A stretch of DNA of 64,000 nucleotides from a virus, in the IMG/VR virus record IMGVR_UViG_3300009060_000001, positions 3,826-67,825 of that record. One strand, 5' to 3'. A program made the translations under genes and the position numbers. The notes beneath the pieces are model-generated. The model worked only from the letters and a program-made list of their open reading frames with translations. It searched no databases and was not told where the DNA came from. Position 1 is the first letter of the stretch; the number at the start of each line of letters is the position of its first letter. Of the stretch, positions 3,618 through 58,651 are shown in pieces.

Positions 3618-4205
3618 TTATACTTCGCCATCATCGTTTATTTCTCCTGTTTGTTTGTCGATTCGGATTTGATTGATAGGTAAGGCGCAGGATGGATCCC
3701 TTTGGCAAGCTATCTTCATAGCCACCCGGGGATCCACCTGGTTGGAGTCCATTGCGCCATACACATATTTGCGACCGCTACCGATCGCCATATATGTTTC
3801 TTCTATTACTTCATAAAAAGCAGCATCGAGATAATAGATTTTATTTTCGACCTTTATAAACCGGCAATGACTAAAATCAAAATCGCGGTATAACTCGAAC
3901 CCTATTTCGCTGGCCTTATCAATAATCAATTCAATGATTTCTTCGGGGGTATATTCCAGTTTGGGCGGAATCTTGTTTTGGAAATGCTTTCTTTCAGAAT
4001 GATTGTAAAAAGATTTATGGATCTCTCGCGCTGCGCGATGCCATACCTGTGATTTAGAGCAACAGCCAACATCTGCAACTAATATATCATTGAATCTGTA
4101 AACTTTTTTACCGGCGCGAATTTCCATTAATCCGGAATATTTCCGACCGCTATCAGAAAGGATCTTATATTGATCGCCTTCATCAATCGCTAAAATAACA
4201 CTCAT
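3618..4205 (-). CDS. Ntn-hydrolase / proteasome-beta / HslV-like protease
   Basis: N-terminal (M)SVILAI, SDS, K33-like KKV, YMAIGSG..Y..GAM, and A.KIACQRDPSC, matching the proteasome-beta pattern. Confidence 0.7.
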   Translation of the reverse strand: MSVILAIDEGDQYKILSDSGRKYSGLMEIRAGKKVYRFNDILVADVGCCSKSQVWHRAAREIHKSFYNHSERKHFQNKIPPKLEYTPEEIIELIIDKASEIGFELYRDFDFSHCRFIKVENKIYYLDAAFYEVIEETYMAIGSGRKYVYGAMDSNQVDPRVAMKIACQRDPSCALPINQIRIDKQTGEINDDGEV

Positions 4206-4232
4206 GGGGAGAATTTTGGGGTTATAACTAAA

Positions 4233-5348
4233 TTAAAATGGGAGATCGTCCATATCATCCATCGCATCGACCATCCGTTGCATCCAGTCCTGAAATTGCT
4301 CTGGAGAAATAAGGTAATTATGTTTGCCCGATTTATGCTTTTTTACATTCGTTTTAATTTCTTGCAGCCAGTCCCGATCCAGGAAAACACCTTGGGGATC
4401 ATCTTCATCGAATTTACTGATATTAGAAATAAGCTGCTGCATCTGCTTTTCATTTATACCCTTTTTCTGCGACTGGCTTTGTTTCTGGCTACCTTTATTC
4501 TGGCTTTTTGGGGACTGCTTGCTTCGTGTGTTCCCTTTATTTTTTGGGCTCTTATTCTTCTTATTCGTTGATCCTCCGGAACCGTTTCCTTTGCCATTAC
4601 CAGAATTGATGTTAGGATTGTTTTCGTGAACGATGGTAGTATTAATATTATCCAACCGCTTCTGAATTTTTGAGTCAACAAAATCGATCAATCGCTCGGC
4701 CTTTTCATAGGATACGCTATCGCAATCTTCTTCCCAGCTATCAATCACTTCCTGAAATTTTGCTTCGCTATCATCTTCCAGATACTTTATTAAGCGCTGC
4801 ATCCTCCGGAACTGTTCTGGAGTCATATACTTTGGCAGAAATTCTTTCGGCAATACCGGCCGGTCCCATCGAACGGTAAAATCCCAGGATTTCTTTGAAA
4901 ACTTATCGTAGGAATCCCATTCATCCTGTGGGCGTTTGATGGCATAGAGCTGGGGAACAAACTGCGTGTATAATCCTACGTCCCACTGCTCGGCAGCCCG
5001 GCGAAGCGATTTACTGGATACGCTTTTAACCATATCAATATTACTGGCTGTATCCATTGCAGCGCCATCCCAATTTGGGATCCATTCATCCCCATATCGC
5101 AAAAGGATAGCCTGGTAGAGCCCGGCATTACCAAGTGTAATCAATTCATTCTTCCAATTACCCTTTCCGCAAACAATATTAAAGCGCGTAATGATAGATT
5201 CCCTTCGCACGTAAGGAGCAACGGCAATAACCGCCTTATTATAAGAATCTCCATAACTAAAGTTACTCACCCATTCCAGATCCCGGAATGCAAAAGGCCG
5301 TTTTAGGCGCTCAACGGCGCGTTCAAAATCAAATTCCTTTTTACTCAT
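4233..5348 (-). CDS. Sak / Rad52-Rad22 family ssDNA annealing protein with SSB-like C-terminal tail
   Basis: LKRPF..DLEW...YVRRESIITRFNIVCG..NWKNE...WDGA...KSLRRAAEQWDVGLY; ends DDMDDLPF. Start moved to ATG 5348. Confidence 0.8.
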   Translation of the reverse strand: MSKKEFDFERAVERLKRPFAFRDLEWVSNFSYGDSYNKAVIAVAPYVRRESIITRFNIVCGKGNWKNELITLGNAGLYQAILLRYGDEWIPNWDGAAMDTASNIDMVKSVSSKSLRRAAEQWDVGLYTQFVPQLYAIKRPQDEWDSYDKFSKKSWDFTVRWDRPVLPKEFLPKYMTPEQFRRMQRLIKYLEDDSEAKFQEVIDSWEEDCDSVSYEKAERLIDFVDSKIQKRLDNINTTIVHENNPNINSGNGKGNGSGGSTNKKNKSPKNKGNTRSKQSPKSQNKGSQKQSQSQKKGINEKQMQQLISNISKFDEDDPQGVFLDRDWLQEIKTNVKKHKSGKHNYLISPEQFQDWMQRMVDAMDDMDDLPF

Positions 5349-7159: not shown

Positions 7160-7295
7160 ATGGGACGTAAGAAAACCCACGAATATGAATATAAGATAGG
7201 CCGGATGAATTAATGTATATGCACCGTTATAATGCACCTAACTTTGTGCAGTTATCTCAATGTGAATATGAAACCCCAAATTAACTTAATTATTT

Positions 7296-10491: not shown

Positions 10492-10550
10492 CACCTAAAA
10501 TAGAAAAGGCCAGCTCGCTTGGGCTGGCCTTTCTTTTATTCTCTTAGGTG
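10492..10550. terminator. Bidirectional intrinsic terminator between convergent blocks
   Basis: AAAAGGCCAGCTC-GCTT-GGGCTGGCCTTTCTTTT, extended by CACCTAA...TTAGGTG. Confidence 0.85.
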
Positions 10551-10610
10551 CTAAACTAAAGAATAATGAAAAGAGTGCTCTCAACTCTTACCATTGCTAA
10601 AATAGGTAGA

Positions 10611-11273
10611 TTACAAGGCATATCCAAGAATGAATGCTGCCACCGTTGCTACTTCTGTCCAAGGGAATCGCCTACCTTTGGGTTTTAGCGGTGTCGTTGA
10701 TACTACTTTTAGGCTATCGAAATCCGGAGATGTGGTTAGTGCCTTTACCGATGATCGATCATCATTAATAAAGATCGCCTGGTCAATTCTCACGCGCCTA
10801 AGCTGGCTTATTTCAGGCGTATCCAAAAATAGCGAGTCATTACGTATGCCACCGCGAGCAACGGCTTCTATGAGTCCATTTCCGAAGGTTGCTCGTTTCT
10901 CTAGTGTTGTATCGGCAAATGTTTGCTCGGTACTGTCGGAATCGTTTTTAAGATCCCATATTGAAAGCGAAGAAACTTCTTGTAGGCTATCGACCTTTAA
11001 ATTTAGCTTCCCAATAATCTTATTATAGGAAGCCAGCTTGTCTTTGTTTTTGTCCACATAATCGCGGAATGCCTTGGAAGTATTGGCCAGGGAATCTTTA
11101 ATCTGCGATTTATCAACGCGCAGCGCTTGGGTAAGCGTAGTTAAGGAATCAAGTTTTTTTGATTGTTCGGCCGTTTCGTATTTAATTTTCTCTGGCGTAA
11201 AATACCTGGTAAGGCCAACAGTTAACAAAAGTACTACTATTCCTAATCCTATTTCTTTTGGGGAAAAACTCAT
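10611..11273 (-). CDS. Putative spanin (Rz-like)
   Basis: N-terminal TM, coiled coil and C-terminal hydrophobic segment; downstream of holin and endolysin. Confidence 0.5.
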   Translation of the reverse strand: MSFSPKEIGLGIVVLLLTVGLTRYFTPEKIKYETAEQSKKLDSLTTLTQALRVDKSQIKDSLANTSKAFRDYVDKNKDKLASYNKIIGKLNLKVDSLQEVSSLSIWDLKNDSDSTEQTFADTTLEKRATFGNGLIEAVARGGIRNDSLFLDTPEISQLRRVRIDQAIFINDDRSSVKALTTSPDFDSLKVVSTTPLKPKGRRFPWTEVATVAAFILGYAL

Positions 11274-11950
11274 GCTGCTTCCTTTTCTTTTTTGATTACT
11301 GTAACATCTTCATTGCCAAAATAATATGCTTGCGATTCGGCAAACTCCTTGGCTGCTTCTTCATCTACCTTGTCCCATAGCTCTGGCCAATCAATGTTAT
11401 CTAACTGGCCCTTCTTTTTGTAAAGCTTAAAGGCTACCCTGGCAAAAGCAGTCATTTTTACGTGTTTCAATACGCTCCAAATTTCATGGCCGGTAAGAAT
11501 TAAAAATAGCACATATTGGAACCATCCCAGCGCATCCGGAAACATATTAGCCCCCACAGTAACAGCAATGATCCCGATAGAATACATTACGGATTTATAA
11601 AATGTTTTCATCCATTTTTTGGGATGAAATCTTATCCTGGAATCGATAATGGCCCGGATGGATCCGGCGATAAAATCAAGGAATACCAAGATTATTAACC
11701 CTTCAACAAGATTCTTAGGAGTTACAAATAGCTGCGCTACTTGCTGTGGCTCGAAAAATCCTTGCATATACGCAAATATCCCGTAGGCCCCTCCCAGCAA
11801 TGCTTTATATCTAAACTGATAAGGGATTTCGGCAATGGGTCGTAAAAAAGGGCGGATAGCCGTGTACCAAAACATATTAATATACCCCGTTTTGTGAGTT
11901 ACAATTATGGTTTTGTTTGGAAGTTCTATCGTTTCTCTAACTGTTTCCAT
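11270..11950 (-). CDS. Holin (phage holin 4 / TcdE-like)
   Basis: Several TM segments; LVFLDFIAG..RA...K.FYK...HEIWSVL pattern. Confidence 0.7.
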   Translation of the reverse strand: METVRETIELPNKTIIVTHKTGYINMFWYTAIRPFLRPIAEIPYQFRYKALLGGAYGIFAYMQGFFEPQQVAQLFVTPKNLVEGLIILVFLDFIAGSIRAIIDSRIRFHPKKWMKTFYKSVMYSIGIIAVTVGANMFPDALGWFQYVLFLILTGHEIWSVLKHVKMTAFARVAFKLYKKKGQLDNIDWPELWDKVDEEAAKEFAESQAYYFGNEDVTVIKKEKEAA

Positions 11951-47919: not shown

Positions 47920-47920
47920 A

Positions 47921-48055
47921 TGAACCGGCCGGGATCTCCCCGACCGGAACCCTGTAAGGTTTCCTCCAGTAACTTGTACTGAAAGAGCATTGGCATCGAG
48001 CGCGATGTCGTTTTTAGATATGCACAATGCCAATGGGTAAGGTGCTTAGCGTTCG
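47921..48055 (-). ncRNA. Structured RNA between two tRNA-like genes
   Basis: Stems CATTGGCAT/ATGCCAATG, CAGTA/TACTG, GGAAACCT/AGGGTTCC, GGTCGGG/CCCGGCC. Confidence 0.45.
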
Positions 48056-48145
48056 TTGACCGAATGGGACTCGAACCCACATTCCCTGGTGATAGCTGCT
48101 AGCAGCCCTTTAGTCAGGTGTCCTATCCAATTAGACGACCGGCCA
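48056..48145 (-). ncRNA. tRNA-like RNA with a 24-nt expanded anticodon loop
   Basis: Intact acceptor (TGGCCGG/TCGGTCA), D arm and T arm (GTGGG-TTCGAGT-CCCAT); anticodon stem encloses CTAAAGGGCTGCTAGCAGCTATCA. Confidence 0.75.
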
Positions 48146-48148
48146 ATA

Positions 48149-48397
48149 TTATTTTCGTTGAATCTTATGCAGCGGAAATACGGCTGCATTCACAACGCGA
48201 TCCTCATGCTCAATTATTTCCTTCCTGTGAGAGCGAAGGAATACTAGCTCAAAATCATTCGTAAATGCCACTGTCTGCGCATATTCATCTTTCTTCTTAC
48301 TTACCTTCACTACATTGTTATGTGTCCGCGATCGCTGCGGAGATTTTAAAATAGCGAACTCCTGTCCCTTTCGTAATTTAGCCATCGTTATCTTCAC
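48149..48397 (-). CDS. Hypothetical protein
   Basis: 82-aa ORF, ATGA overlap. Confidence 0.6.
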   Translation of the reverse strand: MKITMAKLRKGQEFAILKSPQRSRTHNNVVKVSKKKDEYAQTVAFTNDFELVFLRSHRKEIIEHEDRVVNAAVFPLHKIQRK

Positions 48398-48780
48398 TCA
48401 TAGTTATCTAAACAGTATTTAACTTCGTTAATAAGTTCAATGAATTCTTCGGAAAACCCATCCACATTTTTCTCAATATAATGGACTAGATTCCGGGATG
48501 CACCTTTTAGGGCTTCTTGTTTTAAATAGGCATCAACCTTCTTCGATACTTCGACCGAACGTTTGGCCTGGGCCACCGGATCTTCTGCCTTATCCAAGTC
48601 TAACCCTTCCACATTATCGTTGATCTGTGCCAGGCGCATAACAATACCAGCAAGCTCATAATAAGAGCCAACGGAAAACGCTTGCCCACTGGCAGTACTT
48701 AGCAGCACAACCGCTATACGCTCGTTAAAAATGGCTTCATCCAATTGTAATTCGTAATTCGAAACAAATCTTGAAATCAC
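48394..48780 (-). CDS. Hypothetical protein
   Basis: 128-aa ORF coupled to the recombinase gene. Confidence 0.65.
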   Translation of the reverse strand: MISRFVSNYELQLDEAIFNERIAVVLLSTASGQAFSVGSYYELAGIVMRLAQINDNVEGLDLDKAEDPVAQAKRSVEVSKKVDAYLKQEALKGASRNLVHYIEKNVDGFSEEFIELINEVKYCLDNYE

Positions 48781-49364
48781 TGTGCTAATATGGCTTGATT
48801 AATCTTTTCGGTGTCCGCGCCGATGTAGTGCAGCGTGGTTTCAACGTTTTTATGGCCAAAAGCTTTCTGCGTAGCGCGAATATCATGGCCGGTATTCTCG
48901 TAAACGCGCATCCCAAAAGTCTTTCGCATACTATGAGTACCTACGCGATCGTAGATATTAAGCGCATTGGTAGCTTTTTTGAGGATCCGAATGGCCTGAA
49001 CATTCGTTATAGGCTTATTATCGCCTTTTCTGGACTGAAATATGTACCAACCCCGGCTAAAACCATCTTGTTCCCGAAGCTGCTCTACATGCTGCATAAC
49101 GGCTTCTTCCATGCGATCATGTACTGGAATAGCCATCCGATCGCCATTTTTTTTCATGTTGGAAGGAGATACCCAAACCTTGCCAACCATATTACCATCT
49201 GGAGTAAACAGATCTTTTATTTTAAGGCTCAATACCTCGGAGATCCGATACCCGGCAAAGCGCTGAATAGCAAACATCGCGCGATTGCGGAGCTGACTCT
49301 TGGTTAAAAAGTATTGTTCAATCTCATTGTATTCTTCATCGGTTAAATCCCGGCGAGCGGCCAT
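48777..49364 (-). CDS. Tyrosine recombinase, catalytic domain only
   Basis: GYRISEVLSL, THSMRKTFG, FGHKNVETTLHY (R-H-R-H-Y); start moved to ATG 49364. Confidence 0.9.
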   Translation of the reverse strand: MAARRDLTDEEYNEIEQYFLTKSQLRNRAMFAIQRFAGYRISEVLSLKIKDLFTPDGNMVGKVWVSPSNMKKNGDRMAIPVHDRMEEAVMQHVEQLREQDGFSRGWYIFQSRKGDNKPITNVQAIRILKKATNALNIYDRVGTHSMRKTFGMRVYENTGHDIRATQKAFGHKNVETTLHYIGADTEKINQAILAQ

Positions 49365-49410
49365 ATTAATCCCAATTTTGGTTCCCATTATAATTCCAAT
49401 CATCCAACCT

Positions 49411-49501
49411 AAAGAAAGAAGGGAGCCCTGCACGATGGTTGCTAAAAGCTGCGTTTACATGACTTTGACATCGGCCAGGACTCTCCGTTCCCAGGTGCTA
49501 C
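49411..49501 (-). ncRNA. Candidate small RNA / recombinase leader
   Basis: Downstream of the TTGACA-17-TAACAT promoter; long hairpin GGAGAGTCCTG..CGATG/CATCG..CAGGGCTCCC followed by TTCTTTCTTT. Confidence 0.5.
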
Positions 49502-49502
49502 A

Positions 49503-49531
49503 ATGTTAGTAAACTTCTTTAACAGTGTCAA
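49503..49531 (-). promoter_or_regulatory. Near-consensus sigma70 promoter
   Basis: TTGACA-CTGTTAAAGAAGTTTAC-TAACAT. Confidence 0.75.
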
Positions 49532-49533
49532 AT

Positions 49534-49572
49534 AAAAAAGCGCTCTGGACCAACCGATAAGTCCAAAGCGCT
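49534..49572 (-). terminator. Intrinsic terminator after the tRNA-Met/ncRNA unit
   Basis: AGCGCTTTGGAC-loop-GTCCAGAGCGC-TTTTTT. Confidence 0.85.
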
Positions 49573-49592
49573 GATGAGCAAACAAATCCTTG

Positions 49593-49698
49593 TGGCCCTA
49601 CGGTAGATTCCGGAAACCAAAGGTATCCTACTTTACTACCGGCTCCTGAAAAGCAACGCAGTTCGGCCGGTTTCAGGTTCGGCTTCACCACTCGGGCC
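49593..49698 (-). ncRNA. Cloverleaf-like structured RNA
   Basis: GGCCC/GGGCC-A closing stem; CCTGAAA/TTTCAGG; GGTAG/CTACC enclosing GGATACC/GGTTTCC. Confidence 0.5.
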
Positions 49699-49735
49699 TT
49701 TTTCTGTGTGGTTTAATGGCAATAAATCAAATTTG

Positions 49736-49808
49736 TGGCGAGAGCTGGATTCGAACCAGCGACCTCCGGATTATGAGCCCGGCGAGCTACCAGCTGCTCT
49801 ACCTCGCT
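49736..49808 (-). tRNA. tRNA-Met(CAT), initiator-like
   Basis: AGCGAGG..CCGGG-CTCATAA-TCCGG..GCTGGTTCGAATCCAGC-TCTCGCC-A; 1:72 mismatch as in tRNA-fMet. Confidence 0.9.
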
Positions 49809-49877
49809 ATAAAACCCCTGCCAGCTAAGACAGGGTAACATTATACATATAATGATAGAATGATAGTAAATGAGCGT

Positions 49878-49917
49878 AAAAAAAGAAAGCCCCCAGGGGG
49901 ATTAGTTCCGGGGGCTT
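49878..49917 (-). terminator. Intrinsic terminator
   Basis: AAGCCCCCGG...CTGGGGGCTT-TCTTTTTTT. Confidence 0.8.
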
Positions 49918-50230
49918 GTGATGATTGGTTTCAGCTTGGGATGCTGTGAATGCTGGGACGTATGATTGGAAACCCAGCAAGAACCAATTATGGAAGATAA
50001 ATTCGGGGATAGTGCATACCAAAAGGGCCTCATCTATCCTTTTGGATTTCTAGGCATAGATCCCTACACCATCCCTGGGCTAGCTGACCAGGCCAAGGTA
50101 CAATCAGTAAAAAAAGGTAGCAGCCAGGCTCCTCATTCCCGGCTGCATCAACCATCAAACAACTCATTCGAGTTGGGCACATTTCAACCGTTAGAAGTAT
50201 AACAAATCATTGGAACATCACCAACGTAAA

Positions 50231-50893
50231 TTAATGGCTCCGTTTGTTTTTTAGATCTTCGGGAATAAGAGCATCCACTGATTCTTCGATAATTTCAGCA
50301 TTTTCAATTTCCGAAATATCTTCTTGAACTTCTTGGGGTAACTGTGGAGCGCGAACCGTAAGGTTCTGATTAAACTCGATGTTTTGCTGCCTTCGCTGCT
50401 TGGCCGGGCCAACACGATCCATAAAATCAGAAATGGCTCGCATCTCCGATCGGCCTAGCGTTTTTTCCCCGGCAGCACCTTTAGCCAAGTTTAATGTTAC
50501 TTTTGGTAAATAAGACAAAAGGATATCCTCGGATGCTTGGACTGATTCCTCCATTCGCGTTTTCCGGGATTCGGCCAGATACCGATCCCAAGCTTCCGCG
50601 CGGTTAATCCAATCATAATCAATGCTCCATTTCTGGATGTTGCCGGTTGATGTTTTCTTCCCATAAATCACCTTGGCCAGCTTTTGCTGTGATCGTTCAT
50701 GTGGGCCAAGATCAAGATACAGAAGGAAAGCACTGTATGCCGTTGTGGATTCCTTTGGAAGCTGATCCCAGGGCATTTGGTTGCGATCGGATTTTTCAAG
50801 CTCCTTTTTATTGCGTGTGTTTTTTTGAATATACGGATGCACTTCGCCATGAAGGGCATAAGAAAAACTATTGGAATCGCCTTTCTCGCTCAT
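50231..50893 (-). CDS. terS: Terminase small subunit
   Basis: PWDQLPKES..AYSAF..YLDLG..RS..KLA...KWS..YDW..RAEAWD pattern; upstream of terL. Confidence 0.7.
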   Translation of the reverse strand: MSEKGDSNSFSYALHGEVHPYIQKNTRNKKELEKSDRNQMPWDQLPKESTTAYSAFLLYLDLGPHERSQQKLAKVIYGKKTSTGNIQKWSIDYDWINRAEAWDRYLAESRKTRMEESVQASEDILLSYLPKVTLNLAKGAAGEKTLGRSEMRAISDFMDRVGPAKQRRQQNIEFNQNLTVRAPQLPQEVQEDISEIENAEIIEESVDALIPEDLKNKRSH

Positions 50894-51667
50894 AATGGGG
50901 TAATCGATTGGGGTTGAGTTATTTTGAATATATAATTTGAGATGGGGTTCTAAAAATAAAACATCTCTCTCGCGGTGGGGATTTTTAATAGAATGCGCGC
51001 AGGGACCCGCGATTTTTGGCCACGCACCGGTCGCAAAAACATCGTTGGGGCCCCCTTTTAGCCTGGACTAACATTAATGATAGATGCAGCTAGATGGCCA
51101 GATCCATCCCGAGGTTGCTCGAATGTAAAGTATTATAGAATAGTTAACATTCATTTGTATGAATGCAGGCCATAAACGGCATTTTGGGGATAAACGCCTA
51201 AAAACTGGCTTCACATTTTGATTTTAAGGGCTTCGCTTGGATTCCGGCATTCAAACCATGCAGCTATTTCGGGATTTCTGGCCAGATCCGGCAAAGATCC
51301 AGCTGCCCGGCTGTGGGTTCTGGCAACCTTCGCCACATCCTGACAAAGTGCGCAAGACTGGCCAGAATTTTCGGGATCAAAATGCAGCAGCAGCCAACAA
51401 CCAAATTGAACCAAATCAACAAACTTATATAACAATATGAAGCGCTAGCGTGATACGATTCTTTACCAGTGTGCCCTTTAAAGCTTGTAAAGGCCATTTA
51501 GGGCAAAATTCCAGAGCACCCAAAAACATAAGACAAGTTTCTTGAATCAAGAAGTTTATTAACGCACAAAAATACCTTAGCAGCTTATACGGATTGATTT
51601 CGTTCAAAATTGCATTATCTTCTGAATGAGTTATTAAAAAACTACTAAACACGTAATTAAATAAGTT

Positions 51668-52309
51668 ATGAGAGGAGCCAGACCGCTAGAGCATCCCGAA
51701 GTAGAGCAGCTACTAAGAGAAGGTTTTACAGGCCAGTTTAAGCACCGTAACAGATCACTTTTTGCAATAGGTGTATCCACTGGATTCCGATGCAGTGAGC
51801 TACTAGCGTTAACCTTTCGGGATGTGATCCATAGACGTTATCCAAAAGACTGGATCAAGATTAACAAACGACACACGAAGGGAAAGACACAAGGACGGAC
51901 AAACCAGCTGCAACCATTCGCTAAGAAATCCCTGCAACCTTGGATCGAAATCCGAAGGGAGCAGCAGCCAGAAATACCCATACTACTGGATGCACCTGTT
52001 TTTTTGTCAAGAGAGATCAACCAGCGGACCGGAGAAATAAAAGCTATTAGCCTGGATCAAGCTGGCAAGATCCTGCGCGCTGCTTTCAAGCGCTGCGATA
52101 TTACTGGCAGCGTATCAACTCACACGATGCGCAAGACATTCGCTAAAATTGCCTACCGGAATGCCGTAAAAAAATATCAGGCCGGAGAGCTGCTAAAAGA
52201 ACCCATCTTTGTAGTTAAAGACCTGTTAGGCCACAAACATCTAAATGATACCCTTAAATATTTATCATTCTTGGGCAGCCAGATAGATGAATTTGATTAT
52301 CAATTTTGA
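51668..52309 (+). CDS. Tyrosine recombinase, catalytic domain only
   Basis: TGFRCSELLAL, STHTMRKTFA, LGHKHLNDTLKY. Confidence 0.9.
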   Translation: MRGARPLEHPEVEQLLREGFTGQFKHRNRSLFAIGVSTGFRCSELLALTFRDVIHRRYPKDWIKINKRHTKGKTQGRTNQLQPFAKKSLQPWIEIRREQQPEIPILLDAPVFLSREINQRTGEIKAISLDQAGKILRAAFKRCDITGSVSTHTMRKTFAKIAYRNAVKKYQAGELLKEPIFVVKDLLGHKHLNDTLKYLSFLGSQIDEFDYQF

Positions 52310-52314
52310 TAAAG

Positions 52315-52350
52315 AAACCTATTGATTAAAAGGACAGATTTATTTATATA
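52315..52350 (+). promoter_or_regulatory. Early promoter 1
   Basis: AAACCTA-TTGATT-17-TATATA; near-identical to the promoter at 54591. Confidence 0.7.
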
Positions 52351-52382
52351 TCCGGTACACAATAATCAATTAGGTGCTAAAC

Positions 52383-52700
52383 ATGGATACAATAACAAGA
52401 ACAGACGTTTTAAATCATTTTGAAACGGCAATAACAGCAATTCGACAATTCCGGGAAAGCTGGCGCGGACGTTTTAGCCGTAGCATTTTAGGCAGCTTTA
52501 AAGATCTTGAATACAACATAGATCAAGAGCTCCAGATGATCGACTATTTAACCGTACACCCATCCAGCAGCTTCACCAATGATGATTGGGCTCTTTTTGA
52601 TAAGCTTACATTAATCATTGATGAAGATCTGGAGCAGCTGCGACACCAGCGAATAAAACCGGCAAAGATAACCCTCACTAATCAATACAATAACTTTTAA
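52383..52700 (+). CDS. Early hypothetical protein
   Basis: ATG 52383 follows TTAGGTGCTA. Confidence 0.7.
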   Translation: MDTITRTDVLNHFETAITAIRQFRESWRGRFSRSILGSFKDLEYNIDQELQMIDYLTVHPSSSFTNDDWALFDKLTLIIDEDLEQLRHQRIKPAKITLTNQYNNF

Positions 52701-52717
52701 CCTTTTAGGTGCTAAAT

Positions 52718-53401
52718 ATGAATGAACGAATCGAAAAACTAAAGAAGAAACAAGCCGAAGAACTGGCCAAGGCCGAAGCCGAAGAATCAGCGCGCAAGCT
52801 GATCCCGGAAAAATACTTGTCCACATTCTTGCAATACCGGAGCAAAAAACTGGCAGAGTTTGGCGCGACCTACCGACCGGAAAACATTTCGAACGCTATG
52901 GCGCTGCTGGATCTATTCGACAAAGAGCCAACCAGCTCGGTACTAGCTAAGGGGACGTTTACCGGATTTCGGGAAAAGTCTATTGCCGAAGCGGACGAAA
53001 GCATGAACGAAATTACCAATATTGTGCCGTTCTGGATCAAGGTGGATGAGTCCCCACATTCGCACGATGCTAATATTGTTTTTAACTATCCGATCACATC
53101 CGGCATTGTTGGCATAAGCATAGAGCTCCCATCTCATTTACTGCGCAAATTAGTACAGGTAACGTTTAAGCGCGTAGATTTTCGCGGTGGGTATCGTTTT
53201 GATAATGTGCGCGCACACGTTTTAGATCCGGCACAAGTCTTATACGATGGCTCTGAATCCGTAGCCAATGCAGCAAGCCCCATAAAATGGGGTAGAGGTG
53301 GCAACGAGTACGTAAATGACTATACATTTTACTGGCTGCCAACCGGAGTAGAACCGGCAAGTTGGTACGAAGTTTTAAAAAGCTTATTGCGCAAAGTTTA
53401 G
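52718..53401 (+). CDS. Early hypothetical protein
   Basis: ATG 52718 follows TTAGGTGCTA. Confidence 0.75.
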   Translation: MNERIEKLKKKQAEELAKAEAEESARKLIPEKYLSTFLQYRSKKLAEFGATYRPENISNAMALLDLFDKEPTSSVLAKGTFTGFREKSIAEADESMNEITNIVPFWIKVDESPHSHDANIVFNYPITSGIVGISIELPSHLLRKLVQVTFKRVDFRGGYRFDNVRAHVLDPAQVLYDGSESVANAASPIKWGRGGNEYVNDYTFYWLPTGVEPASWYEVLKSLLRKV

Positions 53402-53487
53402 CGCCTATAACCTGTGGCCGGGATGTTGATCCGTTCCGGCTTCTTCTCTCAACTTAACCCACAACCATAAAAAAAATAGGTGCTAAT

Positions 53488-53958
53488 ATGTTCACTTACC
53501 ACGCTAGAGGAGTTAAACACGAACGCGACAGCGAAGGCAATAAGCTGGATCACATCCAGCAAATTACCAACGACAGCGAAACCCCGGAATTTTGGAGCGT
53601 TTACCGGCGGAACCCGGACGATCCCACATCAACGCGCTGTATTGCTGATTTCTTTGGAGATGATATGGAACGCAATGCAAAAGATTTTGAGCTGCTAAAA
53701 AATGACTGTCCGGCAGCCGATAGAATAGCCGTTCTTATTACGCGCATAAATGCCGTAAAAAATACGTGGCTGGAAGTTTATAAAGTTCCGCGCGCTGGCT
53801 GCAAGATCGAAGGCGGAAAGCGCGCGACCGCTATTTTTGTCAACGGCAAAAAATTAGATAGCCAACTGGCAGCCATTCAATACGTTCATCAGGTTTTTGG
53901 TGTAGCGTATGCCAAAGATTTGAAAGCTGCTTTTAAAACCCAATACTGGCCAGTTTAA
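53488..53958 (+). CDS. Early hypothetical protein
   Basis: ATG follows TAGGTGCTA. Confidence 0.7.
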   Translation: MFTYHARGVKHERDSEGNKLDHIQQITNDSETPEFWSVYRRNPDDPTSTRCIADFFGDDMERNAKDFELLKNDCPAADRIAVLITRINAVKNTWLEVYKVPRAGCKIEGGKRATAIFVNGKKLDSQLAAIQYVHQVFGVAYAKDLKAAFKTQYWPV

Positions 53959-53981
53959 TTTTAATCTTAGGTGCTAACCTT

Positions 53982-54146
53982 ATGGATGCTATTATTGTAT
54001 TATCAATCGGAACGCTGGCATGTTTTATAGGAGCATGGAGAACAGAGGACCAAAACAATAGAGATATTTATCTCATTTGTGCCATTGTTTTCCTGTTCAT
54101 TATTGCCAGTCATGCCATGTTTAACCCTTACTTACAACTTAAATAA
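53982..54146 (+). CDS. Small two-TM membrane protein (54 aa)
   Basis: Manual translation MDAIIVLSIGTLACFIGAWRTEDQNNRDIYLICAIVFLFIIASHAMFNPYLQLK; preceded by TTAGGTGCTA. Confidence 0.65.
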   Translation: MDAIIVLSIGTLACFIGAWRTEDQNNRDIYLICAIVFLFIIASHAMFNPYLQLK

Positions 54147-54153
54147 GCCAACT

Positions 54154-54522
54154 ATGAAAACCATCGAACAAAAAACAATCGGGCCGGATCAATTTAACGA
54201 AAGGCTAGCCAATGTAAATCGTTACTGGAATAACATCGAAAAACGTGGGGAAGCCAAGAACCAGGCAAGCGAAGAATTAAAAGAAAAATGCCGTTTCATC
54301 TTCGTGCGCGATGATGGTTGGAGTATTGCCAGCGCTGCATATTATCCAGCGCTCCAGCTCTGGCCAGATGATTGGGAAATTATTTACACGCTGCGCAAAC
54401 CTCACCAAACATTAGAGGGCAATTCCAAGCGCTCAAAATGGACCGGAACAAAACGGCAATTCATGGACAACATGAGCGATGCCAGCGGTCGCGTATTTAG
54501 CGATGCAGATCCCGGACTCTAA
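54154..54522 (+). CDS. Early hypothetical protein
   Basis: Start moved to ATG 54154. Confidence 0.65.
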   Translation: MKTIEQKTIGPDQFNERLANVNRYWNNIEKRGEAKNQASEELKEKCRFIFVRDDGWSIASAAYYPALQLWPDDWEIIYTLRKPHQTLEGNSKRSKWTGTKRQFMDNMSDASGRVFSDADPGL

Positions 54523-54549
54523 TCAACGGTAGTAAACCCCGGAAGGATC

Positions 54550-54585
54550 GAGCTGGCCAGTTTAACCGCTGGCTGGCTCTTTTTA
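54550..54585 (+). terminator. Intrinsic terminator
   Basis: GAGCTGGCCAG-loop-CTGGCTGGCTC-TTTTT. Confidence 0.75.
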
Positions 54586-54590
54586 TAAAC

Positions 54591-54626
54591 AAACTTATTG
54601 ATTTAAAGGACATATTTATTTATATA
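54591..54626 (+). promoter_or_regulatory. Early promoter 2
   Basis: AAACTTA-TTGATT-17-TATATA. Confidence 0.7.
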
Positions 54627-54659
54627 CAAGTACTGAAACATTAATTAATCTTAGGTGCT

Positions 54660-55190
54660 ATGACTGATTTTATTATTTCGCTGCAAGTTGCAGACGATTC
54701 ATTTCAAGAACTGGACACAAAAGCACACAAAAACAGCGCTGGCCATGTAACCGGATCAATGGTTTTACAGAATGCTATTAGCAGGGCCGTTGAAGATACT
54801 GGCGTATCGGTTGGCTACCTTAGTATGAAGATGCTAGCCACCGTTAAGCGCGATGATCCAGAGCTAAGAATAAACTGCGAAGCCCTAGCCGAGCACATCC
54901 CGATAAAAGGGAACGCGCTGGCTTCTGGCGATGATGAGCTGGACAGACGAACCGAACAGCTTATTCAGGAGCAGCTGGAAGCCGGAAATATTTGGGCATG
55001 GTGTACGGTTGAAGTATCAGTAGAATGGAACGGGATCGAATCCGAAGAAGAATATTTAGGATGCTGTTCGTATAAATCCCGAAGCGATTTCGCGGAAAAT
55101 TCTGGCTATTATGAGGACATGGTAAGTACATGCCTTGACAATCTTAATAAAAAACTGGCGGATCTCCGCCGGAAATCCCTGGAAGTATGA
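54660..55190 (+). CDS. Early hypothetical protein
   Basis: 176 aa; WAWCTVEVSVEW..EEYLGCCSY motif; ATG overlaps TTAGGTGCTA. Confidence 0.75.
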   Translation: MTDFIISLQVADDSFQELDTKAHKNSAGHVTGSMVLQNAISRAVEDTGVSVGYLSMKMLATVKRDDPELRINCEALAEHIPIKGNALASGDDELDRRTEQLIQEQLEAGNIWAWCTVEVSVEWNGIESEEEYLGCCSYKSRSDFAENSGYYEDMVSTCLDNLNKKLADLRRKSLEV

Positions 55191-56011
55191 ACAGCTTAAT
55201 ATCTCTTTACGATGCAAGTGGCAACTGGCCGGAACCGTTCGCGCGTTCCGGCTGGATTGTCCATCAACTAGATCTAAAATTAGGCTATGATGTTTTAGAT
55301 TTTGATACCGCACAGCGATGCCTTGAAACCTTTGGCGATGTGGATGGAATTCTGGCAGCTCCAGAGTGCCGAGTCTTTACCAATTCAAGCGCATGGAAAT
55401 GGCCAGACTATAACCGCGATGGTGAAACCGAAGCATCGTTGCAGCTGGTCCGGCAAGTGCAGCGCTTTGCAGAACTCTTTAAGCCTACGGATTTCGATTA
55501 TTACCGCGAATCCGGGAAGCCGTTCTTTTGGGCGCTGGAGAACCCACCCGGACGATTGCCTAAGCTGGTCCCGGGATTGGGGGAAGCTTTTTTCTTTCAT
55601 CCTTGGGAGTATGCCGGTTATCTGGATCACAGTGAAGAAGATCTGGCTCGACTGGAGCAGCTTCGAAATACTCCAGTAAAAGATATTACTTGGGAGGATG
55701 CCGAATTTGTGCTTGATTGCAACGCCTATACCAAACATACCGGCATTTGGGGGGAATTCTGTAGGCACATCCCAAAGAAACCCATTCTGCCGGTGAAGTG
55801 CTGCCCATCCGGTAGCCCTATGCAAATGCTTGGGGGCAACAGAGAGCGCACGAAAGAAATTAGAAGCAGGACACCGCTGGGGTTTGCCCGAGCGTTCTAC
55901 GAAGCAAATAAAGACTATCAAGCGCCATTGTCCCGGGACAAACAGACTGGCCTATTCGGGACTGGCGACAAAAGCGAAGATGATCCAATGGCCTGGATCA
56001 TGCGAGATTAA
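55187..56011 (+). CDS. DNA cytosine-C5 methyltransferase-like protein
   Basis: ISLYDASG (motif I variant), ILAAPEC (motif IV variant), WALENP (motif VI), YTKHTGIWG, RSRTPLGFARAF. Confidence 0.75.
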   Translation: MNSLISLYDASGNWPEPFARSGWIVHQLDLKLGYDVLDFDTAQRCLETFGDVDGILAAPECRVFTNSSAWKWPDYNRDGETEASLQLVRQVQRFAELFKPTDFDYYRESGKPFFWALENPPGRLPKLVPGLGEAFFFHPWEYAGYLDHSEEDLARLEQLRNTPVKDITWEDAEFVLDCNAYTKHTGIWGEFCRHIPKKPILPVKCCPSGSPMQMLGGNRERTKEIRSRTPLGFARAFYEANKDYQAPLSRDKQTGLFGTGDKSEDDPMAWIMRD

Positions 56012-56012
56012 G

Positions 56013-56048
56013 AAACTTATTGATGATATAAAGTTATTTCTTTATAAT
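56013..56048 (+). promoter_or_regulatory. Early promoter 3
   Basis: AAACTTA-TTGATG-17-TATAAT. Confidence 0.7.
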
Positions 56049-56082
56049 ACCCTTTCACGTTAACAAATTCTTAGGTGCTACT

Positions 56083-56319
56083 ATGAATAAAACAAAGAAG
56101 CTTCGCGAACTGGAGCAAAAGCATATCAGTAAAGGTACGCCAGTAATGATCCGGGCCCCTGAATCTATGCGCGTATCCAAGTTTAATGGCCGTAAAGGAG
56201 AAATTAAGCGGATTAAATGCGGTTACAATCCCATTCCCGAGATAGAGCTAGAAGATGGGACACAGTTAGCCGTAGAATTGAAGTACTTAGTCATACCACA
56301 ACAAACTAACCTATTTTAA
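56083..56319 (+). CDS. Small KOW/SH3-like protein ending QTNLF
   Basis: KGTPV.I......FNGRKGEI beta-barrel pattern. Confidence 0.65.
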   Translation: MNKTKKLRELEQKHISKGTPVMIRAPESMRVSKFNGRKGEIKRIKCGYNPIPEIELEDGTQLAVELKYLVIPQQTNLF

Positions 56320-56321
56320 TT

Positions 56322-56621
56322 ATGCCTGCTACAAGAGCTTTAAAAGGAACCGTAGCCCTAGAAATGGCTGTCAGTATTGAAGAACAAGCGCAGCGCGCTG
56401 GAATCCCGATGCGTAAGGTAGCCCAAACGATGAGCAAAAATATAAATGATCTGGATGAACTTTTTGAGGATGGCGGACACGTTCGATGCGTTCATTTTAT
56501 GGATATTGGAGATCAAAAATATGCCAGGCAATTTGGAGAAATCGAATCACCGGATTGGGAAATTGCCAGATTCGAAGTTAAAGATTTAGCTGTTGAGCTG
56601 CTGGAATTGAAATATTTGTAA
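56322..56621 (+). CDS. Hypothetical protein (possible HTH)
   Basis: AQRAGIPMRKVAQTMSKN. Confidence 0.6.
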   Translation: MPATRALKGTVALEMAVSIEEQAQRAGIPMRKVAQTMSKNINDLDELFEDGGHVRCVHFMDIGDQKYARQFGEIESPDWEIARFEVKDLAVELLELKYL

Positions 56622-56716
56622 AGATCCTACCTTAGAAGTCCTAACGTAATCGTAGCTGGTCTGCTGATTCGGGCCAGCTTCCTTTTCACTATAACCGAAA
56701 CCTAATCTTAGGTGCT

Positions 56717-57145
56717 ATGATTAAACTAACCGAAGCGCGACCGCGCGAAATCCTCATGTACTTAGAGCTGGAGCATGGCGGACAAACCTACGAAATCGAG
56801 TGCGAAGTTGATGCCGAAATGGGAATCGTCAACCGCGTAAGCGAAATAAATGGAAACGAGCTGCCAGATTTGGCCGTAGAGCGCGCAAAAAGATATATAC
56901 AACACTGCAACTGGAGCTTTGAAGCATCGGGCGAACGCGATCCCTTTCCGATTCCCATCGATGTAGTTGTGGCCATTAAAGGAGGAACATTTCACGAACT
57001 TTGGACCAACCGTTCTAACGTCAATATTCACAAAATTGATATTGATAAGGACAGCGAAGATCCGGTACTGTATCAAAAGGTAAAAGCCGAAACTATTGGC
57101 AATCCCATGAAGATGGTTCAAAAATATCAATCCGAATTTAAATAA
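56717..57145 (+). CDS. Early hypothetical protein
   Basis: ATG overlaps TTAGGTGCTA. Confidence 0.7.
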   Translation: MIKLTEARPREILMYLELEHGGQTYEIECEVDAEMGIVNRVSEINGNELPDLAVERAKRYIQHCNWSFEASGERDPFPIPIDVVVAIKGGTFHELWTNRSNVNIHKIDIDKDSEDPVLYQKVKAETIGNPMKMVQKYQSEFK

Positions 57146-57153
57146 CTCTTATT

Positions 57154-57642
57154 ATGAATCTTTCCGATGCTAAAGAACTGGCCAAGGGCGATACTGTGTA
57201 TATGACAGTAAGCCAGGCAGAAAACAATTATGGGCTGCGCTATGTAGGGCAGCCGTTAACCGTTTCCCATATTGCAACCAACAGCGATCAACATCCGGGA
57301 TATGATGAAGCAACCGGCGGAATCCTGTTTTATTTTGAAGAACTTGAATTCTCTTTATACGAATGGGAGATTCAGCTGGATGATCCGGATGTGGTTTATG
57401 GATTCAAAGCAAAGTTGGAGCGTTCGGATTTTCACGAAGTAAGTTTATTTTTCGATGTGGAATTCGAAGGCGAAGATTACAAGATCTGGATTTTATACGA
57501 TCTGGAGCAGCGCGCTATTGTGCAAATGACAGAGCAAGCGCATAGCAGAGATATTTCTGATATGCTGGCTGCGCGTTTAGAGGACCGCGTAACCAACAAA
57601 CTGAAATTCCATACATCAATTGAAGATAATGGATCAGCTTAG
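57154..57642 (+). CDS. Early hypothetical protein
   Basis: 162-aa acidic ORF. Confidence 0.7.
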   Translation: MNLSDAKELAKGDTVYMTVSQAENNYGLRYVGQPLTVSHIATNSDQHPGYDEATGGILFYFEELEFSLYEWEIQLDDPDVVYGFKAKLERSDFHEVSLFFDVEFEGEDYKIWILYDLEQRAIVQMTEQAHSRDISDMLAARLEDRVTNKLKFHTSIEDNGSA

Positions 57643-58651
57643 TTTTTTTGATTTAGATAAACAGGCACAACAGCAAGAAATCATTTCCAACCTGGAGAGC
57701 TACGATTATTTTATCGTAGCTTATTCAGGGGGGAAAGATTCTACGGCTGCATTCCTGCATCTGTTAGAGCTGGGCGTTGATCCAGACAAGATCGAGCTGT
57801 GGCATCACGATGTTGATGGGCGCGATAGTCCCCGGCTTTTTGACTGGCCATGTACGGATGCGTATTGTAGGGCGTTCGCGGATGCGTTCGATGTGGATCT
57901 ATATTATTCCTGGAAGCCTGGAGGAATGGAAGCCGAGATGAACCGCGAGAATCAAAAGAGCATTCCTACAAAATTTGAAAGCCCTAAAGGACTGCAAACG
58001 GCTGGGGGTGGAAAAGGAAAATCAAAGACTGTAAAGAAATTTCCAGCTGTGGGAGCCATAACCGATGGGCGCTGGTGCAGTGCGATCCTAAAAATAGATG
58101 TTTCGCGTGTGGCCATTAATAACCAAGACCGCTTTATAGGCAAAAGGGTGTTGTTTATTACTGGCGAGCGCGCCGAAGAATCTGCCAACCGGGCCAAGTA
58201 TAATCCCATCGAAGTGCATCATACCGATAACCGCGATGGAAAGCGAAGAATCCGGCATGTGGATCATTGGCGACCGGTGCTGTATTGGGATGAAATGGAT
58301 GTATGGGAAATCATTGGCCAGTATAACGTAAATGTGCATCCGGCTTATCATTTGGGGATCAACCGGGTAAGCTGTGCATGGTGCATCTTTGCCAGTCCTG
58401 ATCAACTGGCCACTGTTAACCTGGTACTGCCAGAGCAAGGCGTAAAGATCCGCCGGTACGAGATAGATTTCAATCACACGATCCGGAAAGATCAAACCCT
58501 GGAGGAAACCTTGGCCAAGGGCCAGCCGTTCGAAGATGCAACGCCGGAGCTTATCGAAGCAGCTAAGAGCGAAGAATTTAATCAATGTATCATCTTAGAT
58601 AACTGGAAAATGCCAGCTGGAGCCTTTGGGGATGCAGCTGGCCCAACTTGA
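57629..58651 (+). CDS. PAPS reductase (PP-loop) family protein
   Basis: VAYSGGKDS, RWCSAILK, GERAEESANR, HPAY..G..RVSCAWC. Confidence 0.88.
   Translation: MDQLSFFDLDKQAQQQEIISNLESYDYFIVAYSGGKDSTAAFLHLLELGVDPDKIELWHHDVDGRDSPRLFDWPCTDAYCRAFADAFDVDLYYSWKPGGMEAEMNRENQKSIPTKFESPKGLQTAGGGKGKSKTVKKFPAVGAITDGRWCSAILKIDVSRVAINNQDRFIGKRVLFITGERAEESANRAKYNPIEVHHTDNRDGKRRIRHVDHWRPVLYWDEMDVWEIIGQYNVNVHPAYHLGINRVSCAWCIFASPDQLATVNLVLPEQGVKIRRYEIDFNHTIRKDQTLEETLAKGQPFEDATPELIEAAKSEEFNQCIILDNWKMPAGAFGDAAGPT

Follow-up and report, generated by a model that had tools for sequence, protein, structure and literature searches.

A 10-nucleotide sequence repeated before early start codons of a phage, and its candidate antisense partner

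The phage genome and its early region

Virus record IMGVR_UViG_3300009060_000001 (IMG/VR) has a length of 67,825 nucleotides (nt) and a terminal repeat of 123 nt. The stretch of DNA analyzed here, termed the window, is 64,000 nt long and represents bases 3826–67825 of that record; positions given below are those of the window. The minus strand encodes the terminase, portal, major head protein and tail proteins. The window also encodes a 3,694 amino acid (aa) protein and two short tyrosine recombinases, and it has two tRNAs and one tRNA-like gene. A block of small orphan genes is read rightward at 51.7–61 kb. Seven genes of this block have a 10-mer in common directly at their start codons, TTAGGTGCTA (extended form, TTAGGTGCTA(A)), which is termed the tag. 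The original prediction, made from the sequence alone, described these seven copies and proposed that small antisense RNAs silence the seven genes through them.

Number and position of the tag copies

The enrichment of the tag at the seven early starts is confirmed by exact counts. With one mismatch allowed, TTAGGTGCTA gives 10 matches in the window where 2.73 are expected, and none of 100 shuffled sequences reaches 10. The 9-mer TAGGTGCTA gives 8 matches, all on the plus strand (0.18 expected; 0 of 100 shuffles reach 8). Over the whole 67,825-nt record the 10-mer is found 7 times in the forward and 0 times in the reverse orientation; a control with the reversed pattern shows 0 and 0. At two mismatches or fewer there are 43 matches vs 45.45 expected, i.e. 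degenerate copies are not in excess. The lack of an excess of copies with one or two mismatches means that the word has either been strongly constrained or spread recently. Among the words upstream of starts, the 6-mers of the tag show the highest enrichment. All seven places given in the original prediction are correct, but an eighth perfect copy, at positions 10544–10553, had been overlooked.

The seven gene-linked copies are all situated within positions 52370–56717 and are all in the sense orientation. Of the eight copies, seven have their ends at a distance of −1 to 5 nt from an ATG. The individual distances from the end of the motif to the ATG (3, 3, 2, 5, −1, 2 and −1 nt) bear out the earlier statement that each of the seven is within 5 nt of a start and that two overlap it. 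In the region 52.3–56.8 kb the tag is present at 7 of 7 cistrons having a gap of at least 17 nt before them, and at 0 of 4 coupled cistrons, which overlap or nearly abut their predecessors. Seven cistrons beyond 57.1 kb do not carry the tag, five of them with gaps of at least 18 nt. It is absent from the 65 other called starts as well, those of the capsid, portal, terminase and tail genes included, as had been noticed for the late genes.

The spacers before the tagged genes are 17–137 nt long, and the tag is always at the very 3′ end, against the ATG. In each of the five spacers of 71–137 nt it is the final element before the start codon. This arrangement fits a role in the mRNA or in translation better than a roadblock on the DNA, and it is probably at the mRNA or translation level that the tag acts. 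The tag may best be described as a phage-private start-associated sequence, which would be the common translation-initiation region of the seven cistrons that initiate independently within the initial 4.4 kb of the early region read rightward; this description is given a probability of about 0.5.

Copies 5 and 7 have an 18-mer in common; copies 2, 3 and 4 are alike only over a 10–11-mer. A common fold of the tagged leaders was not found, the leaders being unstructured. The tag was also considered as a promoter for a phage RNA polymerase. This was rejected, since none of the frames contains a D-x-D-G-D motif and the ATG is too near the tag.

One observation was made on sequencing data. In the DNA run termed X2, two contigs end at positions 52705–52715, and their overlap is exactly tag copy 2. 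The depths of the two contigs are 114.4 (positions 48384–52715) and 80.4 (positions 52705–57963). To the right of the tag at 52705, other genes may be present in a fraction of the population, in which case the tag would be a mosaic junction. Shared regulatory words can serve as junctions whatever other role they have.

Three of the seven copies are downstream of a shared sigma-70-like cassette (P1–P3 in Table 1), and no 17-bp inverted repeat was seen there. The consensus promoter scan does not return P1 or P2; the rule of the scan needs a T at position 6 of the −10 element. The tags are 14–19 nt or more downstream of the predicted P1–P3 starts, and none overlaps a −35 or −10 element.

These positions bear on a possible role of the tag as a DNA operator recognized by a phage repressor. 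Such an operator would act like a stoperator by blocking elongation in the early operon, and the inverted partial copies at 49.5 kb and 7228 would be further operators. The site is asymmetric, intergenic and in one orientation relative to transcription, and the partial inverted copies come directly after −10-like hexamers at 49503 and 7228; stoperators are also the sites with which Pope et al. (2011, PMC3203893), in their passages on the start-associated sequence (SAS) of mycobacteriophages, contrast that sequence. However, the tag is pressed against the ATG even in long spacers, a place that a roadblock does not need, and no copy lies over the −35/−10 elements of the three early promoters. 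The partial inverted copies at 49.5 kb and 7228 are within chance; for AGGTGCT, 7 occurrences are left when the 8 tag copies are set aside, vs 4.46 expected for all copies. Pfam found no helix-turn-helix or repressor family among the early-region proteins. An operator function is considered extremely unlikely.

Table 1. Positions of the tag copies and of associated features in the window
Feature	Positions	Strand	Remarks
Tag copy 1, TTAGGTGCTA	52370–52379	+	3 nt before ATG 52383; about 14 nt downstream of the predicted P1 start
Tag copy 2	52705–52714	+	3 nt before ATG 52718; intergenic gap 17 nt
Tag copy 3, ATAGGTGCTA, one mismatch	53476–53485	+	2 nt before ATG 53488; at 3′ end of 86-nt spacer, after hairpin
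Tag copy 4	53967–53976	+	5 nt before ATG 53982
Tag copy 5	54651–54660	+	last A is the A of ATG 54660; downstream of P2
Tag copy 6	56071–56080	+	2 nt before ATG 56083; downstream of P3
Tag copy 7	56708–56717	+	overlaps ATG 56717; at 3′ end of 95-nt spacer, after hairpin
Orphan eighth perfect copy	10544–10553	+	no ATG within 12 nt; the only following open reading frame (ORF) has 40 aa and overlaps the convergent gene
Bidirectional terminator hairpin	10504–10535		between rightward operon (end 10479) and leftward lysis operon
3′ untranslated region (UTR) of late lysis operon, candidate antisense RNA	10493–10610	−	anti-tag UUUAGCACCUAAGAG within a hairpin (loop and 3′ arm), directly before the terminator
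Promoter-like cassette P1, TTGATT-17-TATATA	52322–52350	+	read by eye; about 40 nt in common with P2
Promoter-like cassette P2, TTGATT-17-TATATA	54598–54626	+	read by eye
Promoter-like cassette P3, TTGATG-17-TATAAT	56020–56048	+	consensus scan, 10/12
Hairpin upstream of tag copy 3	53416–53441	+	homologue of hairpin-leader cassettes in L198
Hairpin upstream of tag copy 7	56654–56679	+	within 56640–56719, which aligns with L198 cassettes
Terminator-like hairpin before P2	54550–54579	+	
Anti-tag-like GTAGCACCTGGGAA	49488–49501	−	extreme 5′ end of recombinase leader, right after TTGACA-17-TAACAT promoter (49531–49503)
Structured spacer RNA between tRNA-like gene and tRNA-Gln	47920–48055	−	AAGCACCUUA (48047–48038) in unpaired 5′ part

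Pairing of the tag with 16S rRNA

A hint to the host comes from a 6.8-kb contig whose TerL is 73% identical to that of the phage and which is binned in a metagenome-assembled genome (MAG) titled uncultured Balneolaceae bacterium. This sole hint points weakly to Balneolaceae as the host group.

A 16S gene was found in 4 of 13 sampled genomes of the Balneolaceae family, and all four end ...GGATCACCTCCTT... Only the AGGUG of the tag pairs with the 16S tail GGAUCACCUCCUUUC (5 bp, −6.1 kcal/mol, 2–8 nt from the ATG). The invariant flanks of the tag, TT and CTA, cannot pair with this tail. A few late phage genes with AAGGAGG reach −12.2 kcal/mol with the same tail, and most phage genes have A/T- or C/A-rich leaders without a Shine-Dalgarno (SD) sequence. 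Pairing of the tags with internal 16S stretches shows only G·U-rich runs of 7–12 pairs, uncalibrated against chance.

The SD usage of the likely host group was surveyed in 200 kb of this Balneolaceae MAG with the 73% TerL contig, which has a size of 2.8 Mb in all. GGAG, GAGG or AGGA is present at positions −18 to −3 in 18 of 129 starts and in 363 of 3000 random sites. Thus 14% of starts have SD-type words vs a background of 12%, and there is no SD enrichment. The leaders are A-rich, indicating that the crude gene calls in this MAG are mostly in register. Ribosomes of Bacteroidia ignore all but very strong SDs, according to PMC9976891.

With a weak SD and conserved non-pairing flanks in an SD-poor setting, pairing with rRNA alone is probably not a sufficient explanation of the tag, and the earlier argument against a plain SD is supported. 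The motif is not a common host word either: the 2.8-Mb MAG has 2 copies vs 11 for the reversed control, with the host assignment being tentative.

A related phage with a different tag

L198 is a metagenome contig with a TerL 59% identical and a recombinase 37–38% identical to those of the window. Its layout is as in the window, with small genes diverging from an arm of tRNA, recombinase and terminase genes. The intergenic cassettes of L198 consist of a hairpin, a CT-rich run and a CA-rich leader, and these align with window positions 53402–53490 and 56640–56719. Where the window has TTAGGTGCTA, L198 has AAACCAC(GGACA), 6–7 nt before the ATG. The pattern AAACCAC-N6-ATG gives 7 matches in L198 where 0.04 are expected, and this tag is at 9 of 19 called starts. 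It has no SD, the pairing with the 16S tail being −3.2 kcal/mol. To judge from these two sequences, the position of the tag is conserved in the lineage and its word is free to change, which is predicted by an addressable label and not by a pure rRNA-pairing site. In a closer relative, L197 (TerL 67%), no tag is seen in the 4.2 kb available, the early region being beyond the end of the contig.

It should be noted that the L198 tag AAACCAC resembles the default CA-rich leader words of the window. The hairpins also show a resemblance. Those upstream of tag copies 3 and 7 and two in L198 (~2868–2840 and 1352–1320, minus strand) display a similar loop, TGTTGATCC / GTTGACCC / TGCTGATTC, and their stems differ between the window and L198 with compensating changes. 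Hairpins with a conserved loop upstream of tagged genes may be more than plain terminators.

The two phages together allow an assessment of the tag as an ordinary ribosome-binding cassette with a weak SD that was spread by duplication, gene conversion or recombination, so that the orphan copy and the antisense look-alikes described below would be scars or chance. The AGGUG core does pair with the 16S tail at a workable spacing of 2–8 nt, and copying is suggested by the 18-mer of copies 5 and 7, by the approximately 40 nt common to P1 and P2, and by a recent duplication in L198 of more than 90 nt that comprises a leader and the end of the upstream gene. The X2 contig ends on the tag at 52705–52715 suggest a mosaic junction, and the antisense matches are at chance level. 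In contrast, the 10-mer is invariant even though copies 2, 3 and 4 are otherwise unlike, copies with one or two mismatches are not in excess, and flanks that do not pair with rRNA are conserved around a weak SD in an SD-poor setting. In addition, the tag of L198 does not have an SD and yet is at the same position. A plain ribosome-binding cassette is viewed as unlikely.

An eighth copy on the opposite strand of a lysis operon

The orphan copy is 11 nt beyond the bidirectional terminator, which includes a minus strand terminator at positions 10533–10504. The leftward genes at 11950–10611 are a holin gene upstream (11270–11950, minus strand; PF05105, E-value = 2.7e-5), followed by 10611–11273 (minus strand). 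The product of the second gene is a 220-aa membrane protein with an N-terminal hydrophobic segment. By these annotations the holin and the 220-aa protein form a putative lysis cassette that ends the leftward late genes. Since for the leftward genes the terminator lies past the copy, leftward transcripts must cross the copy in antisense.

The last 120 nt of the leftward transcript have a minimum free energy of −35.6 (z = −2.87), with 1 of 200 shuffles being as good. In the predicted fold of the 3′ UTR, UUUAGCAC is in a hairpin loop and CUAAGAG is in the 3′ arm of the hairpin. Duplexes between the 3′ UTR RNA and the seven tagged starts have energies from −17.7 down to −27.0 kcal/mol; for the 65 others the mean is −10.2 kcal/mol (sd 3.1, minimum −20.0).

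L198 also has an orphan copy, CCAAACCACGA, at about 4113–4124. It is gene-less and is followed by a 5-codon ORF. The opposite strand bears a 116-nt unit at positions 4099–4214 (plus strand), whose stem-loop 1 includes the copy in a loop of 20 nt. A promoter-like sequence, TTGTCA-17-TATTAT (10/12 match), is upstream of the unit, and its terminator has 13 bp and a U-run; the unit folds at −40.9 kcal/mol (z = −4.19; 0 of 200 shuffles as good). At the place in the window that matches this L198 small RNA (sRNA) candidate, positions 49809–50230, no anti-tag was seen, and a search of viral contigs with the L198 20-mer gave no match.

The orphan copies also bear on a protein as partner of the tag. The tag could be bound or cut by an RNA-binding protein of the phage or host, such as a translational repressor or an endoribonuclease, which would shut off the seven genes together. 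The RegA and RegB proteins of phage T4 act on early-mRNA ribosome-binding sites. The positional evidence given above applies equally to a protein, and an invariant, non-palindromic sense 10-mer against the ATG suits a sequence-specific RNA binder; for the mycobacteriophage SAS, Pope et al., in the passages concerned, leave the choice between protein and RNA open (PMC3203893). Against a protein, searches of 20 early proteins with Pfam and of 10 with PHROGs showed no family of RNA-binding proteins or nucleases, a weak argument in that nearly all of these proteins are orphans, and the orphan copies in opposite-strand units of two phages would be unexplained. A protein partner is judged quite unlikely.

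Other complementary sequences in the window

The antisense stretches to which the original prediction drew attention are present: GTAGCACCTGGGAA (49488–49501, minus strand), AAGCACCTTA (48038–48047, minus strand) and GCACCTAA (after the TATAAT at 7228). It was proposed that an RNA from ~49501 and/or the tRNA-spacer RNA at 47921–48055 are trans-acting sRNAs which silence the tagged genes via a shared seed.

The GTAGCACCTGGGAA element begins 2 nt after the −10 element and is intergenic and in the transcribed orientation. With G·U allowed, it shows 16, 15, 14, 12 and 12 contiguous pairs with five leaders. In 200 simulated genomes there is a mean of 4.94 sites with at least 14 pairs and 0.87 sites with at least 16 pairs, vs 3 and 2 in the real genome, where the other 16-pair site is at 24932; P(max ≥16 pairs) in the simulated genomes is 0.575. 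In terms of energy, the 49.5-kb site forms the strongest non-self duplex of the genome (−19.0 kcal/mol), and 22 of 150 simulated genomes reach this value (P = 0.147). The complementarity of 12–16 nt to five leaders is present, but its run length and energy are at chance level. When the RNA is taken from its predicted +1 at 49496, it gives −10.0 to −12.9 kcal/mol with the seven tagged starts and a mean of −11.7 kcal/mol with the 65 others, i.e. the specificity for tagged starts is lost.

The RNA from the 49.5-kb promoter continues into the recombinase gene. A tag-like sequence, TTTAGGTTGG, at 49401–49413 (minus strand) abuts an in-frame ATG at 49403, upstream of ATG 49388, and the recombinase may start at ATG 49403. 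In the predicted fold the 5′ element of the recombinase leader pairs with the TTTAGGTTGG start region. L198 mirrors this: its recombinase leader begins with GUGGUU, which pairs with the AACCAC tag of the same gene. Both recombinase leaders thus appear to start with a short anti-tag to their own tag or tag-like start, a second co-variation that argues for a cis role. For the element at 49488–49501, a cis-acting leader element is more likely than a free sRNA. Co-variation of seed and target in related phages, which had been suggested as a check, is seen insofar as the anti-tag in the L198 recombinase leader co-varies with its tag, but it points to a cis function and is from one relative only.

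The 136-nt tRNA spacer (47920–48055, minus strand) folds at −51.5 kcal/mol (z = −4.21; 0 of 200 shuffles as good). Its energies with the tagged starts are −11.6 to −16.8 kcal/mol, and the control minimum is −17.8 kcal/mol. The complementary core is only 7 nt, and the spacer RNA is a weak candidate for an anti-tag RNA; probably, this structured RNA is excised from the tRNA precursor. The tRNA-like gene next to it, at 48056–48145, has an oversized anticodon loop. The extended anticodon loop was tried as an anti-tag and rejected, there being a central mismatch and a match with 2 mismatches such as chance gives.

A scan of the whole window at Rfam gathering scores gave three tRNA matches only, with no C4 or other RNA family. 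The analogy to C4/CI-type antisense RNAs that had been drawn is therefore not upheld for these seeds, whose complementarity is not beyond chance genome-wide. In favor of the two RNAs as trans-acting sRNAs are the best non-self duplex of the genome with 12–16 pairs in five leaders at an intergenic site of transcribed orientation, the GUGGUU of L198 at the same place relative to the recombinase promoter, and the strong structure of the spacer RNA, with its core in an unpaired 5′ stretch. These points are set against the chance-level match, the loss of specificity from the predicted +1, an RNA that runs into the recombinase gene with an element that pairs in cis with its own start in both phages, and a spacer core of 7 nt with energies that overlap the controls and no Rfam C4 match. 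That either RNA is a trans-acting regulator of the tagged genes is very unlikely.

A possible antisense mechanism

The general idea of an antisense RNA that addresses the shared tag is kept by the orphan-copy unit and by L198, but both seeds originally named for it are ordinary. Tentatively, and at clearly less than even odds, the addressee of the tag may be an antisense RNA from the orphan copy, which would be made with the late/lysis operon and would shut off early translation late in infection. In such a process, the weak AGGUG core of the tag would help ribosome binding, and the invariant flanks, which do not pair with rRNA, would make the tag an address for one trans-acting regulator; this single regulator could control the seven tagged genes as a block. 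Leftward late/lysis transcripts would cross positions 10553–10544 and end at the hairpin at 10533–10504, so that each transcript, or a 3′-end fragment processed from it, would carry a perfect anti-tag of 10–13 nt beside the terminator. Once late transcription is on, the anti-tag RNA would occlude the ribosome-binding sites of the early mRNAs. As for the recombinase leader, its 5′ anti-tag most likely acts in cis and would pair with the tag-like start of the same gene. As far as can be judged from sequence, the antisense mechanism is plausible but unproven.

Several points weigh against this interpretation. With the 3′ UTR RNA, an energy of −20.0 kcal/mol is also obtained for one of the 65 untagged starts, and half of the anti-tag is in a stem in the predicted 3′ UTR fold. 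For the L198 sRNA candidate, the energies with tagged starts (−16.5 to −28.1 kcal/mol) are shifted relative to those with untagged starts (−9.2 to −20.0 kcal/mol), but the two ranges overlap. On the plus strand a hairpin precedes the orphan copy by 11 nt, as hairpins also precede three other copies; the orphan copy may equally well be read as a leader cassette without its lost gene, and the L198 unit likewise as a leader cassette without a gene. The complementarity of the other strand of the orphan copy is trivial. In addition, the gene calls are crude, being the longest ORFs that start with ATG, P1 and P2 are the author's reading and are not returned by the promoter scan, and the host assignment depends on one 6.8-kb contig in a MAG. 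The non-trivial point is the place of the orphan copy inside a terminated opposite-strand unit, as it is predicted in only two phages, which have different words.

Comparison with known systems

The closest likeness is to the SAS of Cluster K mycobacteriophages (Pope et al. 2011, PMC3203893). In the passages that define it, the SAS is a 13-bp asymmetric sequence of 11–19 copies found in the non-structural half of the genome only, located 3–7 bp from mostly ATG starts, with an SD core and conserved flanks that do not pair. It is rare in the host, and single copies have no associated gene start. Some copies are preceded by an extended element, the ESAS, which bears a promoter and 17-bp imperfect inverted repeats. 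Besides contrasting the SAS with stoperators, Pope et al. leave open in these passages whether its partner is RNA or protein. Statements on the SAS in the 2024–2025 literature still call its role unknown, and the single paper found to mention both a start-associated sequence and antisense does not connect the two.

The tag described here is likewise a short, asymmetric, many-copy word in one orientation, a few nt upstream of the ATG of non-structural genes. It also has an SD core, conserved flanks that do not pair, rarity in the likely host group and a copy without a gene start, and three copies follow promoter-like cassettes (P1–P3) that may correspond to the ESAS. The differences are as follows. 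The word is unrelated, 10–11 nt here vs the 13-nt GGGATAGGAGCCC (up to 2 deviations), and there are 7+1 copies here vs 11–19. The phage lineage and host group are unrelated (here probably the SD-poor Balneolaceae), and no 17-bp inverted repeats were seen. A relative of this phage uses a completely different, SD-less word, and a candidate opposite-strand transcript with the mirror sequence can be named. From this comparison of sequences, the tag is an analogue of the Cluster K SAS by design and not a member by descent. New relative to the Cluster K SAS are the word, the phage lineage, the SD-poor host group, the word-swapped relative and the nameable candidate partner.

Three other systems should be mentioned. 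The c4 RNA of phages P1 and P7 and the CI RNA of P4 act on one operon and are cut from a precursor. The candidate described here would be similar in being a phage RNA with a short complementary stretch that covers the ribosome-binding region. It differs in that the proposed targets are seven separate cistrons, and in that the best candidate is a late-operon 3′ UTR and not an immunity-region transcript.

The stoperators of Cluster A phages, which are sites for the L5 repressor, act on DNA and are located in both arms, including operators over an early promoter. They are similarly asymmetric, intergenic, present in many copies and in one orientation relative to transcription. In contrast, the gene-linked copies of the tag are all directly at the start codon and outside the promoters.

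The PeSL (promoter-early stem-loop) cassettes of T4-type phages are defined by a promoter and a stem-loop; an invariant sequence at the start codon is not part of their definition. They resemble the cassettes described here in being repeated promoter/hairpin elements between small early genes, and they are recombination junctions too. The evidence for a junction here is a single contig break.

Searches for related phages and other observations

A blastn search of positions 51600–57200 against a phage collection gave no match. Three DNA runs contain a nearly identical phage with about 20 differences in 13.4 kb, none of which is in a tag copy; because the phages are nearly identical, these runs give no power for testing tag conservation. 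A scan for relatives with the TerL protein alone gave one 99% fragment only, a recombinase-based scan gave one unrelated contig of 28% GC, and a lysis-protein scan gave none. A 14-mer scan of viral contigs yielded more than 100 single matches, which were attributed to chance.

The untagged, translationally coupled gene at 55187–56011 (plus strand) has many homologues, some with PF00145 or named in their source as DNA cytosine methyltransferase; Pfam gave no match with the window's own protein. This methyltransferase-like gene is exchanged widely between unrelated phages. In 80 loci with such a protein, that gene is the only one in common with the phage. Repeats in these 80 loci were examined as start tags and rejected, as they are coding repeats.

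A second leader word, AACCCCA, is located 18–38 nt upstream of the starts at 4205, 7296, 32990, 35716, 50893 and 61963, on both strands, and these include the start of the major head protein. The related words AACCCA and AACCAC are at five further starts.

A conserved non-coding block, GCACCG...AAAAAC...TTGGGGCCCCCTTT, is found at window positions 51026–51066 (plus strand) and at L198 positions ~3925–3890 (minus strand), between the recombinase/tRNA arm and the early genes. L198 also has, at positions 4570–4672 (plus strand), a second tRNA-like sequence, which is not called by ARAGORN and whose T arm and 3′ end are good; it recalls the tRNA-like gene at 48056–48145 of the window.

Significance

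SAS have been described in print only for Cluster K mycobacteriophages, and the same anatomy is now seen in an unrelated phage, in whose likely host group SD sites are scarcely used. A swapped word with a kept position argues for a general, sequence-addressable layer of control on phage early translation, as opposed to a peculiarity of mycobacterial ribosome binding. The orphan copy that is read backwards is a concrete candidate for the partner. If this is true, one RNA would control seven genes via their ribosome-binding sites, and the design would be portable as an orthogonal translational switch.

A wider and more doubtful proposal is that the tag and its mirror RNA form a phage-private addressing system. 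Each lineage would write its own label of 7–13 nt on a block of early ribosome-binding sites and would keep exactly one gene-less copy that is read in the reverse direction, in this phage at the 3′ end of the late lysis operon and in L198 as a free sRNA. Transcription in the late or the immunity state would then switch the block off, and the labels of relatives would be orthogonal (TTAGGTGCTA vs AAACCACGG). Were such an addressing system to exist, it would also explain the Cluster K SAS described in 2011, including its single copies without a gene start.

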